This document shows positions 2,096-36,984 of a stretch of 64,000 nt of DNA, piece after piece. The notes beneath the pieces were generated by a model. That model was not told the origin of the DNA. It was given only the letters and a program-made list of their open reading frames with translations, and made no database searches. The first letter of the stretch is position 1. Every line of letters begins with the position of its first letter. The translations under genes were made by a program, and so were the position numbers. Where the stretch lies: contig CAJWHW010000002.1 of the NCBI GenBank assembly GCA_913040915.1, positions 22,129 through 86,128 on the forward strand, written 5' to 3'. The stretch comes from an uncultured Fidelibacterota bacterium (GTDB taxonomy: Bacteria > Fidelibacterota > Marinisomatia > Marinisomatales > UBA1611).

Positions 2096-2941
2096 ATGGT
2101 CAAAATTCTAGCCACATACTTAATACTTATCAGCAGTCTCAGTGCTTTTGAGTCCCCAAGGTCTTCTGTAGTTCGGACTGATTATGGATTCATTGATTAT
2201 GCAAATCGGGTTATCGTTTCCCGCGGCACGGCAAATATTATAAAACGAGAGACATCTGAAGGTGATTTAAAAACCATTGAAAAAAATCTGAAATTTTCCA
2301 AAGGGGAAGCCCGGGCCAGGGCACGTGAAAATTTATTAGACTTAATCAAATTAGTAAACTTTGATAGTCGAACAGTTGGTGAAATCATGTTAGGTGATCC
2401 TTTAGTTGGCAGCCGTGTAGGAACTTTGGTGGGAAGTGCTTTTCAACAAGGAGAGATTGAGTATCTTGAACGAAATGAAGTGGCCATAGCTTTAGCAATT
2501 AAAATGTCGGGGCTGGCGGAAATTTTAATAGATGCTGATGGGTACTTGAATGAAGATATTGCCCAATCAACATATCTAATGATGCGAGCAGTTACTCCTA
2601 AAACCAATCGAGCAACTGGAATTGTAATAGATGCTAGAAATATTTATCATATTCCGGCTATGGTTCCAAAAGTATATAATGAAGATGAAAGATTAGTTTA
2701 TGGGCCACGGCATTATACTCGTTCTCGCTCCGTTAATCGAGGCCCTATGGGATATGCCCATTCCATGGAAGATGGGAACGTTAGCCGTCGTGTAGGGAAT
2801 AATCCGCTACTAGTGGAAGCAGTTGCAAATGATGATGATATAAATTTGACTGTTTCTAATTTAGATGCGGAAAGGATTAGAGATGCTGAAAAAAAATTCG
2901 GACTTCTCACAAACTGTAAGGTTCTTGTCCTCCTTAAATAA
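2096..2941 (+). CDS. hypothetical secreted protein
   Basis: 281-aa ORF with signal peptide MVKILATYLILISSLSAF. It is divergent from the 1032-2075 gene. No family recognised. Confidence 0.5.
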   Translation: MVKILATYLILISSLSAFESPRSSVVRTDYGFIDYANRVIVSRGTANIIKRETSEGDLKTIEKNLKFSKGEARARARENLLDLIKLVNFDSRTVGEIMLGDPLVGSRVGTLVGSAFQQGEIEYLERNEVAIALAIKMSGLAEILIDADGYLNEDIAQSTYLMMRAVTPKTNRATGIVIDARNIYHIPAMVPKVYNEDERLVYGPRHYTRSRSVNRGPMGYAHSMEDGNVSRRVGNNPLLVEAVANDDDINLTVSNLDAERIRDAEKKFGLLTNCKVLVLLK

Positions 2942-2999
2942 ATTTGTAATTTTGCCTGATCAGGGTTTGGATTTCAAAATATCCTTATAAAATTCAGGC

Positions 3000-4100
3000 A
3001 TGGAAAAATATAAAACGGCTGTTCTTTTATTACAAGATGGCCGTTTTTTTTCAGGAAGAACATTTGGCGATGAGGGGGAGACTATTGGGGAGGTGTGTTT
3101 TAATACAGGCATGTCCGGCTATCAGGAAATTTTGACTGATCCATCTTATTGCCGTCAAATTGTTACGATGACAACTCCCCATATTGGTAACTATGGAGTG
3201 AACCCTGAAGATATAGAATCAGATAAAATTCAAGTGGCGGGATTTGTTATCAAGGAAGAGACAGAAATTCCATCAAACTGGCGATCTACACAATCCATCG
3301 GGGAATATTTAAAGATAAACCAAATTGTAGGAATTCAGGGAGTAGACACTCGGGCAATCACTCGGCATATCCGGGATAATGGTGCCATGAATGGCATTAT
3401 TTCTACGACTGATTCTAATCTCAATAGTCTAAAAAAAAAATTAGGCAATTCTCCAGAAATGACTGGGCTGGATTTAGCAAAAGAAGTAACCATATCAAAA
3501 CCCATTAAGTGGTCATCAAAATCAAATACGAAGTACAAAGTTGCGGCCATAGATTTTGGAATAAAGACCAATATTCTACGATTATTAGAATCCTATGGTT
3601 GTGAATTAACTGTATTCCCTGCCAATATATCTGCGCAGGACATTTTGGATTTTGATCCGCATGGCGTGTTTCTATCCAATGGTCCGGGCGATCCTTCCGC
3701 TGTTAAGTATGGTATTGAAACAGTAAAATCTTTGTTAGGAATAAAGCCAATCTTTGGAATTTGTCTAGGACATCAGATCTTGGCACTGGCTCTGGGTGCA
3801 AAAACATTCAAGTTGAAATTTGGCCACCGTGGTATCAACCATCCTGTTAAGAATCTTGAAACAGGAACAGTAGAGATCACTAGTCAAAATCATGGATTTG
3901 CAGTGGACCTGGATTCATTACCTGAACAGTTAATCTCCACCCATGTTAATTTAAATGATAATACATCAGAGGGGATTCGCTGTGATGCATTGAATGCATT
4001 TTCAGTGCAGTATCATCCTGAATCCAGTCCAGGGCCACATGACAGTCGCTATCTATTTCAACAATTCATTGAAATGATGAATCGTGCCAAAAAGAACTGA
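3000..4100 (+). CDS. carA: carbamoyl-phosphate synthase small (glutaminase) subunit
   Basis: 366 aa. The N-terminus [32 protein letters not shown] and the GATase motif GICLGHQ are present. It overlaps carB by 17 nt. Confidence 0.95.
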
Positions 4101-25404: not shown

Positions 25405-26885
25405 GCTGCTAATCCATCCTCTGCGAAGTCAATTGCTGACATGATAGCCTTGGCCTTACTTACCGTTTCCTCAAATTCTTTGGTGGGGTCTGAATCATAG
25501 ACAATGCCTGCACCGGACTGAAAATGGACGGATCCATTTTTCATAATCATAGTCCTTATAGCTATACAAGTATTTACATTGCCGGTAAAATCAAAAAACC
25601 CGACAGCACCTGAATAAATATTTCGTCGTTCAGGTTCTAGATCTTTGATTATTTCCATAGCTCGAATTTTGGGAGCACCTGTAACCGTACCAGCAGGGAA
25701 ACCACTCATAAGCGCATCAAATGGATCTTTATGTTCGGCAAGCTTTCCTTTTACATCAGAAACAATATGCATAACGTGGGAATAATTTTCGATTACCATA
25801 TTCTCGGGAATGGTAATTGACCCAAATTCTGAGACACGGCCCACGTCATTTCTGCCCAGATCTAAAAGCATAAGGTGTTCTGCTCTTTCCTTTTCATCAT
25901 TTAATAGTTCGTGCGCTAATTTTTTATCTTCATCAACTGAGTCCCCACGTTTACGCGTGCCTGCAATAGGGCGGATTTCCACATTGCCATCTTCTACTTT
26001 TACTAAGAGTTCAGGTGATGCACCAATAATATCAAAATCATTAATCTTTAAATGGAACATATATGGTGATGGATTAATGTTTCTCAAAGCTCGGTAAAGG
26101 GTTGTAGCCTCTACATCGGTGGCCCTTTCGAACCGCTGACTGAGAACCAGTTGAAAAATATCACCGTTGACAATATACTCTTTAGCTTTAGCCACTGCTT
26201 TCTCAAATTTATTTTGATCAAAATTTGAAATTACTTTACTTTTTTTTACTTGTATTGGCGTCTGATAATCCACATTAGTATGTAGTGATTCGCCAATTAT
26301 ATCTATCTTTGAATGTGCTTTATTAAATTGGAATTCCAAATCTGCTGAATCATCAATATTAACATTTGAGATTACTAATGCAGACCCTTTTAAGTGATCG
26401 AAAGCAATTATGTTTTCAAATAACATAAAGACTGAATCAGGTATATTTAATGCTGAATCTGTGTGAATTGGAATATCTTCGAACCAGGTGATAGTCTCAT
26501 AGCCAAGGTAACCAACTAGTCCACCGGTAAAAGATGGAATCCCGGGAAACTTCATCATTTTATATTGAGATTGAATATCGCGAAGTAAATCTAAAAATGG
26601 TGTTTCCACTTTATTTTTGTTACCATTTTTATAGATAATTGTTTGTCCATTTTTGTGTGTCAATATTTGTTTTGGATTAATTCCTACATAAGAATATCTG
26701 GTATATTGATTCCCTTTTTCTACAGATTCTAGTATGAAAGCATATTTAGCCTTTTGAGATAAATGTATCCATGCTGCCACGGGCGTAAGAAGATCTGCCA
26801 GGATACGTTTATATACAGGTATAGTTCGGTTCCCTTGGGAAACCAAATCTTGAAATTCTTTGTAGGTCAGTTGAGTTTTATCCAT
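25401..26885 (-). CDS. trpE: anthranilate synthase component I
   Basis: It contains LADLLTPVAAW, PSPYMF and GAVGFFDF-GN. I prefer the ATG at 26885 (MDKTQL). The ORF-track TTG at 26894 lies inside the terminator T-tract. Confidence 0.95.
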   Translation of the reverse strand: MDKTQLTYKEFQDLVSQGNRTIPVYKRILADLLTPVAAWIHLSQKAKYAFILESVEKGNQYTRYSYVGINPKQILTHKNGQTIIYKNGNKNKVETPFLDLLRDIQSQYKMMKFPGIPSFTGGLVGYLGYETITWFEDIPIHTDSALNIPDSVFMLFENIIAFDHLKGSALVISNVNIDDSADLEFQFNKAHSKIDIIGESLHTNVDYQTPIQVKKSKVISNFDQNKFEKAVAKAKEYIVNGDIFQLVLSQRFERATDVEATTLYRALRNINPSPYMFHLKINDFDIIGASPELLVKVEDGNVEIRPIAGTRKRGDSVDEDKKLAHELLNDEKERAEHLMLLDLGRNDVGRVSEFGSITIPENMVIENYSHVMHIVSDVKGKLAEHKDPFDALMSGFPAGTVTGAPKIRAMEIIKDLEPERRNIYSGAVGFFDFTGNVNTCIAIRTMIMKNGSVHFQSGAGIVYDSDPTKEFEETVSKAKAIMSAIDFAEDGLAA

Positions 26886-26955: not shown

Positions 26956-27024
26956 CTACGTAACCCCTTTAAGGCTAAAAAACCAATACCAGTTGTAATA
27001 ATTTTCTATGTTTTTGTAATTCAT
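26956..27024 (-). CDS. aromatic-codon leader peptide (22 aa) of the trpE...aroQ operon
   Basis: The minus strand reads ATG AAT TAC AAA AAC ATA GAA AAT TAT TAC AAC TGG TAT TGG TTT TTT AGC CTT AAA GGG GTT ACG TAG, which is MNYKNIENYYNWYWFFSLKGVT. Seven of eight consecutive codons are Tyr, Trp or Phe. Its last codons carry GGGGUUA (26967-26961), which is complementary to the 5' terminator arm UAACCCC (26922-26916). Confidence 0.7.
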   Translation of the reverse strand: MNYKNIENYYNWYWFFSLKGVT

Positions 27025-27064: not shown

Positions 27065-27337
27065 TTATTTATTTTTTTGAAATTTTTTTGAAATTTTATA
27101 AACAGGATCAAAAATTGAAGCAATATCTTCTTTATTTAGCTTTCCATCCAATTTATTGGCAAGATGCTCTATAATTTCTTTTTCTCGATTTGGATCATGG
27201 ATTTTAATATTATTGGATGCTTTGATTTCACCAATCTGTTTTGAAATAGAAAAACGCTTTAAAAGAAAATCTAATATTTGATTATCTAAATAATCAATTT
27301 TGTCTCGCAGTGAATCAATTTTCTCTTTTGGGTTCAT
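27065..27337 (-). CDS. chorismate mutase, monofunctional AroQ class
   Basis: 90 aa, all-helical. LRDKIDYLDNQILDFLLKRFSISKQIGEIK is typical of an AroQ chorismate mutase. Confidence 0.85.
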   Translation of the reverse strand: MNPKEKIDSLRDKIDYLDNQILDFLLKRFSISKQIGEIKASNNIKIHDPNREKEIIEHLANKLDGKLNKEDIASIFDPVYKISKKFQKNK

Positions 27338-27394: not shown

Positions 27395-28537
27395 TTAAGT
27401 TTGTTCCAATGCCTGTTTGAGGTCAGCAATAATATCTTTGTGGTTTTCTATCCCCACGGAAATTCGCACTAAACCATCTGTGAGGCCTCGGGCATCTCGT
27501 TCTTTTTTCGGGACATCCGCATGGGTCATGGTAGCAGGGTGAGTGATCATGGTTTCCACAGAACCCAAACTTTCTGCTAACTTTGCCAATTGAACAGAAT
27601 TCATCACAATTTTTGCTGCGGGGATGCCGCCAATTAATTCAAAAGAAATCATACCACTATATCCGGACATTTGTTTTTTGGCAATAGCGTGGCAAGGATG
27701 AGAAGGGAGTCCAGGATATGCTACCCGGAATACTTTAGGATGAGCCTCTAAATATTCCGCTACTGCTTGGGCATTTGAAAAATGCTTTTTCATTCGTATA
27801 TCCAATGTTTTAACACCGAGAATGGTGAGCCAGCAATCAAAGGGCCCGGGAACGGCGCCAATGGTTTTTTGGATGAATTTCAGTTTTTCAAACAAGTCTT
27901 CCCTATTGGTAATTACTACGCCCCCAATCAATTGGTTATGGCCGCTTAAATATTTGGTAGTACTGTGCATCACCAAATCTGCACCGAATTCCATTGGTCG
28001 GAGGAAAACAGGTGTAGCAAAGGTAGAATCCACTCCAAATAAGATATTATGTTTTTTAGCAATTTCACCAACAGCTTCAAGATCTGTGATCTTTAATAAT
28101 GGGTTTGTGGGTGTTTCTATCCAAATTAATTTTGTTTTGGGTTGAATTGCATTTTCAACATTTGTAGGAATGGAAGAATCTACATACGTGAAATGTAAAT
28201 CATAATTCACTAAGATCTGGTTAAAATACCGGGACACGCCACCGTAAACATCATCGGAACAAATGATATGGTCGCCTGCTTTCAACAATTTTAAAACACC
28301 ATCCACAGCGGACATACCACTAGCAAAGGCAATTCCAAATTGTCCTCCATCAAGCTCGGCTAAAATTTCTTCCATAACCTGTCTTGTGGGGTTGGATGAA
28401 CGGGTATAGTCAAATCCTTTATCTTGGCCAACTTCTTCCAAAACGTAAGTGGCTGTTTGGTAGACAGGCGGTAGGATAGACCCAGTAGTAGGATCAGGTT
28501 CTGTACCTGCCTGGACAACTTTTGTATCAAATTTCAT
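27395..28537 (-). CDS. Cys/Met-metabolism PLP enzyme (cystathionine gamma-synthase, beta-lyase or gamma-lyase family)
   Basis: 380 aa. It contains TKVVQAG..PDPTTGSILPPVYQTATY and the lysine motif HSTTKYLSGH. The exact reaction cannot be assigned from sequence alone. Confidence 0.85.
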   Translation of the reverse strand: MKFDTKVVQAGTEPDPTTGSILPPVYQTATYVLEEVGQDKGFDYTRSSNPTRQVMEEILAELDGGQFGIAFASGMSAVDGVLKLLKAGDHIICSDDVYGGVSRYFNQILVNYDLHFTYVDSSIPTNVENAIQPKTKLIWIETPTNPLLKITDLEAVGEIAKKHNILFGVDSTFATPVFLRPMEFGADLVMHSTTKYLSGHNQLIGGVVITNREDLFEKLKFIQKTIGAVPGPFDCWLTILGVKTLDIRMKKHFSNAQAVAEYLEAHPKVFRVAYPGLPSHPCHAIAKKQMSGYSGMISFELIGGIPAAKIVMNSVQLAKLAESLGSVETMITHPATMTHADVPKKERDARGLTDGLVRISVGIENHKDIIADLKQALEQT

Positions 28538-34517: not shown

Positions 34518-34657
34518 AGATATTTTTCCTTATTTTGTGTTATTTATTGGTTTGTTACTAATATTTATGAATTAGTTATTCATAATAAATACAAAACGTA
34601 ATTGATAGCTTGTTGGGATAATATGTTAGAGGGCAAGAGACATTACAGCAGTATCTG

Positions 34658-34770
34658 TCTTATCAGTCTTCTAAAAAACTCGAAGCAGGAATTAGCACCT
34701 TGAACCGCATTGTACGGAGATGGTTGCTAAGGTATCTTAGGGCCTGATCCCTCCACCTTTCTGGATAAAA
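34658..34770 (-). promoter_or_regulatory. SAM-I (S-box) riboswitch
   Basis: The minus strand reads UUUUAUCCAGAAAGGUGGAGGGAUCAGGCCCUAAGAUACCUUAGCAACCAUCUCCGUACAAUGCGGUUCAAGGUGCUAAUUCCUGCUUCGAGUUUUUUAGAAGACUGAUAAGA. It matches the S-box core elements AUC-AGA-GG-GGAGGGA--GGCCC--GA--CC--GCAACC...AAGGUGCUAAUUCC-GC...GAUAAG. The P1 halves UUAUC(C)AG and CUGAUAA pair with each other. Confidence 0.85.
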
Positions 34771-34964
34771 TCCGGTACTGATCTGTCAAAAAGCATAAAA
34801 AACTTCTTTTAAATGTTAAATATGAAAATAAAATAATGCAAGATAACATTAATATATTTAACTATACTCCATCATTTTCTATAATTTTTTTATAAATAAA
34901 AGGAATATGATTTATATTTGAATGTTGCCCTTTATAAGAATTTGTTATAAACTTTTAGCCAATT

Positions 34965-35048
34965 ATGAACATACGACGACGCCATAACCATCATCTTAAC
35001 ACTTTGATTAATAACAATAATAATATGAGTGGGGGCGAAGCTTTGTAA
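34965..35048 (+). CDS. Asn-codon leader peptide (27 aa) upstream of asnB
   Basis: The sequence ATG AAC ATA CGA CGA CGC CAT AAC CAT CAT CTT AAC ACT TTG ATT AAT AAC AAT AAT AAT ATG AGT GGG GGC GAA GCT TTG TAA encodes MNIRRRHNHHLNTLINNNNNMSGGEAL. It has 8 Asn, five of them consecutive (35010-35024). Confidence 0.6.
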   Translation: MNIRRRHNHHLNTLINNNNNMSGGEAL

Positions 35049-35073
35049 CCATAAGGTTAAGCTTTAATAAAAA

Positions 35074-35108
35074 CCTCCAGGGATTTTAATTCATGGGGGT
35101 TTTTTTTT
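35074..35108 (+). terminator. intrinsic terminator of the candidate asnB attenuator
   Basis: CCTCCA (35074-35079) pairs with TGGGGG (35094-35099) in a 6-bp stem with one G-U pair and a 14-nt loop. It is followed directly by T9 (35100-35108), 23 nt before the asnB ATG. Confidence 0.7.
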
Positions 35109-35131
35109 ATATCAAATAAAAGGAAAAAATT

Positions 35132-36721
35132 ATGTGTGGCATATTTTTATATAAAGGTAGAAAACAAGATTGGAATTCATTGGAACCTGATATTAAACGG
35201 ATTGGTTATCGCGGCCCAGATAATACACACCATGAAATGATTGGCAATGATATATTATTAGCTTTCCATCGATTAGCTATCATGGGCACAAGTGAAATGG
35301 GCGATCAACCGATGAAACATCCCAATGATGCTTCGCTCACTCTGATCTGTAATGGTGAAATTTATAATTATAAAAATTTAGCTAAAAAATATAGCTTTAA
35401 TTTGAAGACAGGCTCTGATTGTGAAATTATTTTATTCATGTTTAAACAATTTGGTATTCAAAGAACTGTAAAGGAATTAGATGGCGTTTTCATGTTCGTA
35501 TTATATGAAGCAAATACTGGTCTACTTTTTGCTGGCCGGGATCCCATGGGTGTTCGTCCGGGGTTTATCGGTCGAAATGGAGATGAGATTATGATTGCAT
35601 CAGAAGCAAAATCCATGGTGAATCATTCTTCAAGTATTATTCCATTTCCCCCAGGGCATTGGTGGTGTTCGAACCTTTCAGATATATTCAATCCTTATTT
35701 TCTTTATAATAAAATCAAAATTCAAGAAAACACCGAAGAAGATATTTGTAATAAAATCCAGTTATTATTAACAGCTGCAGTTAAGAAACGGCTTATGACA
35801 GAACGTGATATTGGGTGTTTATTATCTGGTGGTTTGGATTCGAGTTTAATTTGTGCTCTTGTGAATAAGTATTATGAAGGACCAAAACTAAATACATTTT
35901 CTATTGGACTTGTAGGGAGCATTGACCTTGAATATGCACAAGATGTGTCCTCTCATTTGAAATCAAAACACCACCAGATAGAAGTATCTCAAAATGAGTT
36001 TTTAGATGCAATTGAAACTGTGATTTATAATATTGAATCTTATGATACTACTACAGTCAGAGCCAGTGTAGGCAATTACCTCGTTTCAAAATATATTTCA
36101 GATAATTCTGATTGCAAGGTGATTTTTAACGGTGATGGCAGTGATGAGGTATGTTGTGGATATGTATATTTAAGGAATGCACCATCACCAGTTGATTTGC
36201 AAAAAGAAAATGAAAGGCTGGTTGAAGAGATTCATTATTTTGATGTGCTGCGCTCAGACCGCAGTATTAGTTCTAATGGTTTGGAAGCACGGACGCCTTT
36301 TTTGGATAAAACATTTGTGAAGTATTATTTATCAATTCCTGCGGAATTAAAGTTATTTGATGGGGCACAAAGATTAGAAAAATATTTATTAAGAAAAGCT
36401 TTTGATGATCAGGGACTTTTACCAGATAAAGTTTTATGGCGTCGGAAATGTGCTTTTTCAGATGGTGTAAGTTCGCAGAATAATTCCTGGCATCATATTA
36501 TCCAATCATTTGTAGACCAAAAAATTAGTGATGAAGAATTTCAGCGAGAAAGCACTAAGATCACACATTGCACTCCTCAATTAAAAGAGAGTTATTACTA
36601 TCGTAAAGTATTCAATAGCTTCTTTGAGAATCATGAGAATTTAATTCCTCATTTCTGGATGCCTAAGTGGTCCAATACGATAGACCCTTCAGCTAGAGAA
36701 TTAAGTGGGTACAAAGAATAA
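35132..36721 (+). CDS. asnB: asparagine synthetase (glutamine-hydrolysing)
   Basis: 529 aa. The N-terminal nucleophile MCGI is present, with the PP-loop LLSGGLDSS. An SD, AAAGGA, lies 7 nt upstream. Confidence 0.93.
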   Translation: MCGIFLYKGRKQDWNSLEPDIKRIGYRGPDNTHHEMIGNDILLAFHRLAIMGTSEMGDQPMKHPNDASLTLICNGEIYNYKNLAKKYSFNLKTGSDCEIILFMFKQFGIQRTVKELDGVFMFVLYEANTGLLFAGRDPMGVRPGFIGRNGDEIMIASEAKSMVNHSSSIIPFPPGHWWCSNLSDIFNPYFLYNKIKIQENTEEDICNKIQLLLTAAVKKRLMTERDIGCLLSGGLDSSLICALVNKYYEGPKLNTFSIGLVGSIDLEYAQDVSSHLKSKHHQIEVSQNEFLDAIETVIYNIESYDTTTVRASVGNYLVSKYISDNSDCKVIFNGDGSDEVCCGYVYLRNAPSPVDLQKENERLVEEIHYFDVLRSDRSISSNGLEARTPFLDKTFVKYYLSIPAELKLFDGAQRLEKYLLRKAFDDQGLLPDKVLWRRKCAFSDGVSSQNNSWHHIIQSFVDQKISDEEFQRESTKITHCTPQLKESYYYRKVFNSFFENHENLIPHFWMPKWSNTIDPSARELSGYKE

Positions 36722-36816: not shown

Positions 36817-36984
36817 ATGTACGATACTGCAATAAATAAAATTAGCATTACGGGGATGAAGCCAATTGGGCTTTGTGACCGCGAAATTCTATGCCAAATG
36901 GTTACTATATTGCAATCCATTATTCGGTACCTAAGTATATCAATTTTGGTACTTATTATTACCTTCGCCGTTTTGATCGCCTAG
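36817..36984 (+). CDS. Ile/Leu/Val-rich short ORF upstream of ilvB (candidate ilv leader peptide or small membrane peptide)
   Basis: 55 codons, below the ORF-track cut-off: MYDTAINKISITGMKPIGLCDREILCQMVTILQSIIRYLSISILVLIITFAVLIA. From the internal ATG at 36898 it gives a 28-aa peptide with 16 Ile/Leu/Val residues, including ISILVLII. No downstream intrinsic terminator was found. Confidence 0.3.
   Translation: MYDTAINKISITGMKPIGLCDREILCQMVTILQSIIRYLSISILVLIITFAVLIA

Follow-up and report, generated by a model that had tools for sequence, protein, structure and literature searches.

Is transcription of asnB, the gene for glutamine-hydrolysing asparagine synthetase, tied to the supply of charged tRNA-Asn in an uncultured Fidelibacterota bacterium? 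The question is raised by a short open reading frame (ORF) rich in asparagine (Asn) codons and a terminator that lie immediately ahead of asnB in a stretch of 64,000 nucleotides from contig CAJWHW010000002.1 (assembly GCA_913040915.1), which is referred to here as the window. The original prediction had read these parts as an attenuator of the trp/his type. A computational analysis of the window and of related loci supports this reading, with the parts kept in fixed geometry across divergent Marinimicrobia (AsnB 62-83% identical). The element is probably (at about 0.8, judging from sequence comparison) a ribosome-mediated, or leader-peptide, transcription attenuator that would couple asnB transcription to the supply of charged tRNA-Asn.

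The Asn-Codon Leader Ahead of asnB

All parts of the leader lie on the plus strand. The leader ORF (34965-35048) comprises 27 codons and a stop (ATG at 34965, TAA at 35046-48) and would encode MNIRRRHNHHLNTLINNNNNMSGGEAL, in which Asn accounts for 8 of the 27 codons (4 AAT and 4 AAC). Five of these are consecutive (AAT AAC AAT AAT AAT, 35010-35024) and form the putative regulatory run, while single Asn codons are found at 34968, 34986, and 34998. Inside the ORF, the sequence UGGGGG (35030-35035), which would serve as the 5' strand of an antiterminator (segment 2), starts 5 nt past the last Asn codon and ends 10 nt ahead of the stop codon. A hairpin over the stop codon (hairpin B, 35037-35065) is followed by an intrinsic terminator (35070-35108) with a predicted energy of -14.3 kcal/mol, which consists of the 5' arm AAAACCUCCA with the core CCTCCA (35074-79; segment 3), an inner stem-loop (35080-35093), the 3' arm UGGGGG (35094-99; segment 4), and a tract of nine U (T9 in the DNA, 35100-08). 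The coordinates originally given for the ORF, the Asn run, both copies of TGGGGG, CCTCCA, T9, and the asnB start codon proved correct to the base, and the hairpin placed at 35038-35064 was recovered with one further pair of positions.

The presumed target, asnB (35132-36721), starts 23 nt past the T-tract and 83 nt past the leader ORF, and is preceded at 7 nt by a Shine-Dalgarno-like AAGGA (35120-35124), with AAAGGA kept ahead of asnB in relatives. Its product of 529 amino acids begins with Met-Cys and matches asparagine synthetase models over its full length, with 354.8 bits to NCBIfam TIGR01536 (cut-off 267.1) and 496.8 bits to PRK09431, asparagine synthase B (cut-off 499).

The leader occupies a divergent intergenic spacer, with thrA and asd on the minus-strand side, so that no upstream gene is available to which its terminator could belong. 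Across the 64 kb, on both strands and in all frames, the leader run is the only run of at least four AAY triplets, and no more than 2 Asn residues stand in a row in any of 24 large proteins encoded there. Under a strict hairpin-plus-T6 criterion, three intrinsic terminators are present in the whole window, that of the asnB leader among them. A simple terminator scan of the window missed it because its stem is imperfect and its loop long; the same scanner called the orthologous terminators in two relatives (L001 and L016). An identical leader is present in two independent assemblies (3-4 SNPs over 4.6 kb), and an assembly artefact can thus be dismissed.

Conservation among Relatives

By using one genome per species from the GTDB genomes, a search for asnB yielded 34 loci, 27 of them with upstream sequence. 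The closer loci among the 34 all belong to metagenome-assembled genomes (MAGs) of Marinimicrobia (SAR406, Neomarinimicrobiota, Fidelibacterota), with AsnB proteins 65-83% identical. The same leader layout was found upstream of asnB in 21 of the 27 loci: an ATG-initiated ORF of 22-35 codons, an Asn run, a run of 4-5 G, a hairpin on the stop codon, and then a terminator of -14 to -26 kcal/mol. An Asn-run ORF and a terminator in the asnB upstream regions of relatives had been put forward as a check of the original prediction, and both are thus conserved. Over all orthologous leaders, the ORF spans 19-38 codons, the G-run lies 6-11 nt past the last Asn codon, and the stop codon lies 8-11 nt past the G-run. 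The gap from T-tract to asnB is 16-29 nt in the 21 loci, with the sole exception of L010, in which an inverted-repeat insert (2470-2663) stretches it to ~194 nt. The association with asnB holds in differing contexts, with thrA, ppdK, or other genes upstream.

These leaders fall into two sequence families. The window belongs to family 1, whose ORF ends in ...NNNNN(M/L/I)SGGEAL with the G-run read as GGG-GGC; the family 2 ORF ends in ...NNN(A/T/V)NN.G(V/A)G..V with the G-run read as GTG-GGG-G.

A metagenome search was also carried out with a pattern blind to asnB (four Asn codons, then G5, then AACCCCC). Among the 80 matches listed, 20 are true leaders, and asnB lies 22-29 nt past the T-tract in 18 of the 19 complete ones. 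The remaining complete leader (L112) sits on a contig of 1.5x coverage that diverges directly past the terminator (downstream of 1265) and lacks asnB; this contig may be chimeric. The other 60 of the 80 listed matches were discarded as low-complexity or eukaryote-like noise, and L043 and L053, considered as a leader variant, were rejected in the absence of a terminator or asnB. The leaders therefore occur almost solely in front of asnB.

More distant AsnB homologues (60-66% identity) were sampled as well, and the element was found at L138, L139, L142, and the L143/L146 pair (57% GC). L138 is a MAG-type record whose source label, Caldithrix abyssi, is unconfirmed.

RNA Structures and Covariation

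A single MAFFT alignment of both families (A2) set the helices out of register, and the families were therefore analysed separately and each sequence also alone. Across orthologs, the terminators (-14 to -26 kcal/mol) show 91-98% of alignment cells paired and 4-5 covarying pairs, and a GC-rich stem followed by 6-9 U is present in every leader. Hairpin B has a predicted energy of -9.5 kcal/mol in the window (z -3.5 relative to dinucleotide shuffles); equivalents with unrelated sequences occur in every lineage (z -3.5 to +0.3, negative in 11 of 12), and compensatory changes were identified in family 2, plus one in family 1 (L080). Another hairpin (hairpin A), restricted to family 2, abuts the G-run, with 89-94% of cells paired and 3 covarying pairs. 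When the terminated conformer was evaluated as a whole (alignment A6), 86.4% of cells were paired and 12 pairs carried double changes; this count was reached by 1 of 500 shuffles and the covariation score by none of 500, and pairing dropped to 38-52% in slid controls.

The alternative helix, formed by the G-run and the terminator 5' arm, encloses hairpin B and shares that arm with the terminator. With the 3' arm withheld, this antiterminator is the minimum-energy fold in all 22 leaders folded (-15.5 to -25 kcal/mol), at energies comparable with those of the terminators, and 84-91% of its cells are paired in a helix that is nearly invariant G:C. A permutation test was used to ask how far each G-segment matches the arm of its own lineage: pairing with the own arm summed to -264.3 kcal/mol, versus -246.8 +/- 6.4 kcal/mol with arms from other lineages, and only 97 of 20,000 permutations were as good. 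Lineage-specific matches include GUGGGGG:CCCCCAC, GCGGGGG:CCCUCGC, GAGGUGGGG:CCCC..CACCUC, GGGGCU:AGCCCC, and, in L143, GUUGGGCG:CGCCCGAC.

A further pairing involves a C-rich patch upstream of the G-run (segment 1), which pairs with the G-run in about 29 of 34 folds. It exceeds shuffles in some lineages (z -4.0 in L143, -2.7 in L001, -2.6 in L014, and -2.1 in L011), with a mean z of -0.87 over 20 lineages and 74.6% of cells paired in A6. The clearest case is the four-segment Asn attenuator predicted before asnB in L143 (1318-1500; GCA_054026015.1, GCA_054027315.1), which is identical in L146 (2818-3000). Its leader ORF encodes MFSAHVLPVNNANENVRVQAVGRSVCYLL, its segment 1 (CUCUGCCCA) provides the z of -4.0 by pairing with segment 2 (UGGGCGGAG), and segment 2 is also complementary to the terminator 5' arm given above.

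Proposed Mechanism of Attenuation

Measured from the first P-site base, a ribosome footprint extends roughly 12-15 nt in the upstream and 15 nt in the downstream direction. An ample supply of Asn-tRNA would allow the translating ribosome to reach the leader stop codon and to melt hairpin B; once this codon occupies the A site, the end of the G-run would lie 5-8 nt upstream of the P site, inside the ribosome. With the G-run covered in this way, the two terminator arms would pair, and RNA polymerase would halt at the U-tract without reaching asnB, whose start is a further 23 nt away. Under a shortage of Asn-tRNA, the A site of the stalled lead ribosome would hold an Asn codon upstream of the run or one of the first 2-3 codons within it. 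For Asn codons 1, 2, or 3 of the run, its leading edge would fall at about 35022-35028 and leave UGGGGG (35030-35) free to capture CCUCCA in a helix enclosing hairpin B, so that no terminator would form and asnB would be transcribed. A ribosome stalled on either of the last two codons of the run would hide the G-run, but a starved lead ribosome would be expected to stop at the first hungry codon. In lineages with segment 1, the G-run could additionally be sequestered upstream, as in the classical four-segment design.

It is possible that the leader ORFs are translated from leaderless or near-leaderless mRNA, because they lack a Shine-Dalgarno sequence and -10-like hexamers lie close to their ATG codons. 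Such hexamers occur 5-13 nt ahead of the leader ATG in the window and its relatives: TAAAAT at 5 nt in family 1, TAGGTT at 10 nt in part of family 2, TATAAT at 6 nt in L143, and TGtTATAAA at 13 nt in the window. The last of these (34943-34951, plus strand) might be an extended -10 element, which would give a 5' untranslated region (UTR) of ~6 nt without a Shine-Dalgarno sequence; ahead of the L001 leader, a promoter-like pair, TTGGTA-17-TAAAAT, can be seen.

Several observations weigh against the attenuator, or against particular parts of it. Translation of the ORF, termination, coupling, and the Asn response are features that we infer from sequence. The leader ORFs have no Shine-Dalgarno sequence, in contrast to asnB, and promoter-like matches in the leaders are no more frequent than in shuffles, which leaves the promoter assignment weak. 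A C-to-U change in its arm makes the terminator of the window weaker than all others in the set. As to the antiterminator, the predicted pairing of TGGGGG with CCTCCA stands in so far as it forms in every fold with the 3' arm withheld and prefers its own arm; double changes were found in only 1-2 pairs, and shuffle controls were not clearly exceeded. The compensatory changes looked for were recovered in the terminator and the auxiliary hairpins, and classical covariation in the antiterminator is weak because its helix hardly varies. The alignment of the window's own family (A4) offers almost no variation with which to probe this helix and is uninformative on covariation, since its sequences are 90% identical. 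In the window, segment 1 pairs no better than expected by chance (z 0.09), and the window version may therefore follow a three-segment design in which the antiterminator strand is masked by the terminating ribosome alone. Finally, in an untranslated leader the default structure would presumably be the antiterminator, unlike in the trp paradigm, and tight transcription-translation coupling would therefore be demanded.

A last point on the same side is that the element was not found at 12 asnB loci (L006, L018, L019, L021, L022, L027, L032, L140, L144, L145, L147, and L148). Because it is absent from these sampled loci, the element is widespread and not universal. At L006 (AsnB 73% identical), an apparent decayed remnant of the leader is visible at about 2740-3000, with no G-run or terminator. 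L018, L019, L021, and L022 share an AT-rich motif, ...TATACGCAAATAAATAATATTTTAAAG..., ~110-150 nt upstream of asnB, and a similar stretch is present in L144; this motif of asnB loci lacking the Asn leader may represent a different regulatory site for the same gene.

Even if stalling at Asn codons is what the leader senses, its output might be something other than intrinsic termination, such as Rho access, mRNA stability, or initiation of asnB translation, with the hairpin and U-tract secondary in role. The A-rich Shine-Dalgarno region 3' of the U-tract could pair with the U-tract, and a candidate branched-chain leader in the same window (described below) has no canonical terminator, so the lineage may use other outputs. 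This possibility is considered improbable, however, in view of the GC-rich stem and 6-9 U that are kept in every leader and covary, and of the complementarity between the terminator 5' arm and the G-run of the ORF, which is the defining logic of termination and antitermination.

What Selection Acts On

Over 34 distinct leaders, AAT or AAC accounts for 197 of the 217 codons (91%) that make up the Asn zones. The AAC share of Asn codons is 24% in these zones versus 18% in the genes of the window, and AAA appears once, although it is commoner than AAT in window genes. The Asn runs vary in length by whole codons, from 3 to 9. Internal stops in the 34 leaders number 0 in the Asn frame, a value that is partly given by construction, and 77 and 201 in the other two frames, with ~88 expected from base composition. 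About 8 lineages with unrelated N-termini keep open ATG frames of 19-38 codons, which would not be expected at 0.084 stops per codon.

The peptide itself behaves differently. No relationship between lineages is seen in its N-terminal halves, and the frame in which the G-run is read differs between the two families, a pattern of conservation as RNA and not as peptide. In the window, the 5' half of the leader ORF (to ~34990) is found in this genome alone; the sequence becomes homologous to that of L001 and L004 at ~34990-34995 and stays so over the remainder of the ORF, and an in-frame ATG has been retained despite the replacement. The leader core is 77-96% identical between genomes, whereas third-codon positions of asnB are 48-64% identical. 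Given the unrelated N-termini and the differing frames of the G-run, selection, as read from these comparisons, acts on the Asn codons plus the RNA, and not on the peptide or on AT-richness.

This pattern bears on the idea that the Asn run is never read as codons and is instead an internal promoter of the sigma-70 type or the site of an RNA- or DNA-binding regulator. In that case the 5' UTR would start near the G-run and remain untranslated, and its hairpins would form an attenuator controlled by a protein or a ligand. A promoter scanner does find TTAACA-17-AATAAT at 34996-35024 (plus strand), with the -10 box within the Asn run, and the same pair occurs at the homologous place in L001 (2862-2890), as does TTGACG-17-AATAAT in L016. 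Homology between the window and its relatives starts just upstream of TTAACA, and the missing Shine-Dalgarno sequences would also fit an untranslated region. On the other hand, such matches are as frequent in shuffles, a -10 box is mimicked by any (AAT)n run, and the -35-like hexamer varies like coding sequence (FNTL, LNIC, LKAF). An internal promoter or binding site also leaves unexplained the triplet periodicity (only T or C at each third position of the run), the whole-codon run lengths, the long open ATG frames in ~8 lineages, and the stop codon fixed 8-11 nt past the G-run. It is thus rated as unlikely, a shade below the alternative outputs discussed above.

Less likely again is a reading without attenuation, in which the short ORF and its terminator make up a separate gene for a small Asn-rich protein that has its own function, and asnB is transcribed separately. 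Any small gene would show this succession of ORF and terminator, and an N-terminal motif, MELQNILWRK, is kept within the window's family. However, outside the Asn run the peptide is unrelated between families and has been replaced in the window, and the apparent C-terminal motif is the G-run in differing frames, that is, conservation at the RNA level. The T-tract lies only 16-29 nt from asnB in all leaders but L010, which leaves no room for a separate asnB promoter; the element is tied to asnB across differing genomic contexts, and the G-segment of the ORF tracks the terminator arm. A lasso-peptide or other RiPP precursor served by the AsnB homologue as macrolactam cyclase is effectively refuted: lasso cyclases are indeed asparagine-synthetase homologues encoded beside short precursor genes, and a weak NCBIfam lasso-cyclase match exists (NF033535, 136 bits), but this is far from its cut-off of 525 while full-length matches to the AsnB models reach 355 and 497 bits, the N-terminal Cys nucleophile of AsnB is kept, the adjacent genes (thrA, asd, and ilvBNC, with ilvB or ilvD next) include neither a leader peptidase nor an RRE gene, a terminator separates "precursor" from "cyclase", and the peptide has no conserved core.

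Comparison with Known Systems

The leader-peptide attenuator proposed here resembles those of the trp, his, phe, leu, thr, and ilv operons of E. coli and Salmonella in having a short ORF with tandem cognate codons. As in attenuators of the trp/his type, an intrinsic terminator stands just before the gene, an alternative helix is predicted to use the terminator 5' arm, and the stop codon is sited so that a terminating ribosome would block this helix; the L143 leader has all four classical trp-type segments. Unlike the families Trp_leader (RF00513), His_leader (RF00514), Phe_leader (RF01859), Thr_leader (RF00506), and Leu_leader (RF00512), the element carries Asn codons and has asnB as its target. 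It also departs from classical attenuators in that segment 1 is unsupported in the window, the ORF is without a Shine-Dalgarno sequence, and the hosts are Marinimicrobia (SAR406), not Proteobacteria.

In the leader region, no Rfam family matched at gathering level. The best sub-threshold scores were those of His_leader (24.4 bits, gathering 49), Phe_leader (20.7, gathering 55), and Thr_leader (13, gathering 55). The first of these probably reflects a CAT-AAC-CAT-CAT stretch, together with hairpins of a generic kind, in the 5' half that is specific to the window and missing from relatives.

Asn-specific T-boxes of Firmicutes (RF00230) sense charged versus uncharged tRNA-Asn and produce a terminator/antiterminator output at Asn-related genes, and they thus share the proposed signal and output of the Asn leader. 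A T-box, however, binds the tRNA directly via a specifier codon and a conserved T-box sequence, without translation, whereas the Asn leader is only ~145 nt long and contains an ORF. The T-box covariance model gave no match at E <= 10 in 34772-35140, and a T-box or known riboswitch was rejected given the lack of any gathering-level Rfam match in the leader region.

Among reported systems, polycysteine leaderless short ORFs in mycobacteria are reported to act as Cys-responsive attenuators (bioRxiv 10.1101/834739). They share with the Asn leader a run of codons for a single amino acid placed before the biosynthetic genes of that amino acid, possibly on leaderless mRNA, and they differ in amino acid and phylum, the Asn leader in addition having a canonical intrinsic terminator.

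The original prediction suspected an undescribed member of the attenuator class. An Asn-codon leader for asparagine synthetase was indeed not found in Rfam 15 or in open-access full text, a scope that omits most subscription journals and makes the claim of novelty provisional. Within the textbook class of leader-peptide attenuators, the Asn specificity, the asnB target, and the occurrence in Marinimicrobia are thus provisionally regarded as new.

Other Candidate Leaders in the Window

A second leader with the same layout precedes trpEGDCFBA on the minus strand (27024-26892). Its ORF of 22 codons (27024..26956) encodes MNYKNIENYYNWYWFFSLKGVT, in which Trp, Tyr, and Phe are the regulatory codons. 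The sequence GGGG (26967-64) lies 5 nt ahead of the stop codon, which is followed by a hairpin and then by a terminator (ACCCCGG...CGGGG-T(n), 26920-26892) whose end is 6 nt short of the trpE start codon at 26885. The terminator 5' arm, UAACCCC, is complementary to GGGGUUA in the ORF. Unlike the Asn leader of the window, this leader has a clear hairpin between segments 1 and 2 (AGCCUU with GGGGUU) in its minimum-energy fold. Its best leader-type near-miss in Rfam is Trp_leader, at 20.7 bits (gathering 41). The Trp leader is of established specificity, and an attenuator of known type therefore shares the layout of the Asn element.

An ORF of 48-55 codons heads the ilv operon in the window (36817-36984, plus strand), in L001 (4695-4841), and, as homologues, in L002, L004, L005, and L007. 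Its end is rich in Ile, Leu, and Val (...SISILVLIITFAVLIA in the window, ...LLILVIIGLAVQIA in relatives), and it precedes ilvB in the window and ilvD-ilvB in L001. A long hairpin overlaps its 3' end, and no canonical T-tract terminator was found there. It is a candidate for a branched-chain leader peptide.

These leaders raise the tentative idea, which we regard as rather doubtful at present, that Marinimicrobia employ one modular attenuator layout whose specificity is set by the codons in the run, and that the marine Asn version is a three-segment, default-ON form in which segment 1 has been lost. The parts of this layout would be a short ORF, perhaps translated from leaderless mRNA, with a G-run near its stop; a hairpin over that stop; and a terminator whose 5' arm is C-rich. 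One 64-kb window would then hold an Asn version for asnB, a Trp/Tyr/Phe version for trpE, and perhaps an Ile/Leu/Val version for ilv. In the default-ON form, asnB would be turned off only by a ribosome that reaches the stop codon in time.

Implications

If the Asn leader operates as proposed, asparagine would be added to the short list of amino acids sensed via leader-peptide attenuation, and both attenuation and transcription-translation coupling would be extended to Marinimicrobia (SAR406), an abundant uncultured marine phylum. The Asn specificity is clean, well conserved, and testable, yet conceptually unsurprising. The two transcript forms could serve as an in-place indicator of Asn limitation in existing metatranscriptomes and, should the modular default-ON idea be true, their ratio, terminated to read-through, in ocean metatranscriptomes would give an in-place measure of tRNA-Asn charging in an abundant uncultured deep-ocean lineage. 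The leader also supports a role of the AsnB homologue as a supplier of asparagine for translation; some AsnB homologues are reported to amidate peptidoglycan instead (PMC8554201). As a compact element of ~145 nt, the leader is a candidate Asn biosensor. In addition, the two families, the GC-rich four-segment variant, the decayed L006 copy, and the replaced 5' half in the window provide a natural series on attenuator evolution.

Neighbouring Features

On the far side of the spacer that holds the Asn leader, a SAM-I riboswitch (73.8 bits; 34657-34771, minus strand) lies upstream of thrA, which encodes a bifunctional aspartokinase/homoserine dehydrogenase, and asd. The same riboswitch is present in L008 (2486-2601), and it is missing from L001 and L002, in which thrA starts 127 nt from the Asn leader. 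The segment of ~570 nt that differs also replaced the 5' half of the leader ORF in the window.

Directly upstream of the trp leader, a gene on the minus strand (27065-27337) encodes a stand-alone chorismate mutase of the AroQ type with 90 amino acids; the trp operon flanks this gene on one side and a cystathionine gamma-synthase-like gene (27395-28537) on the other.

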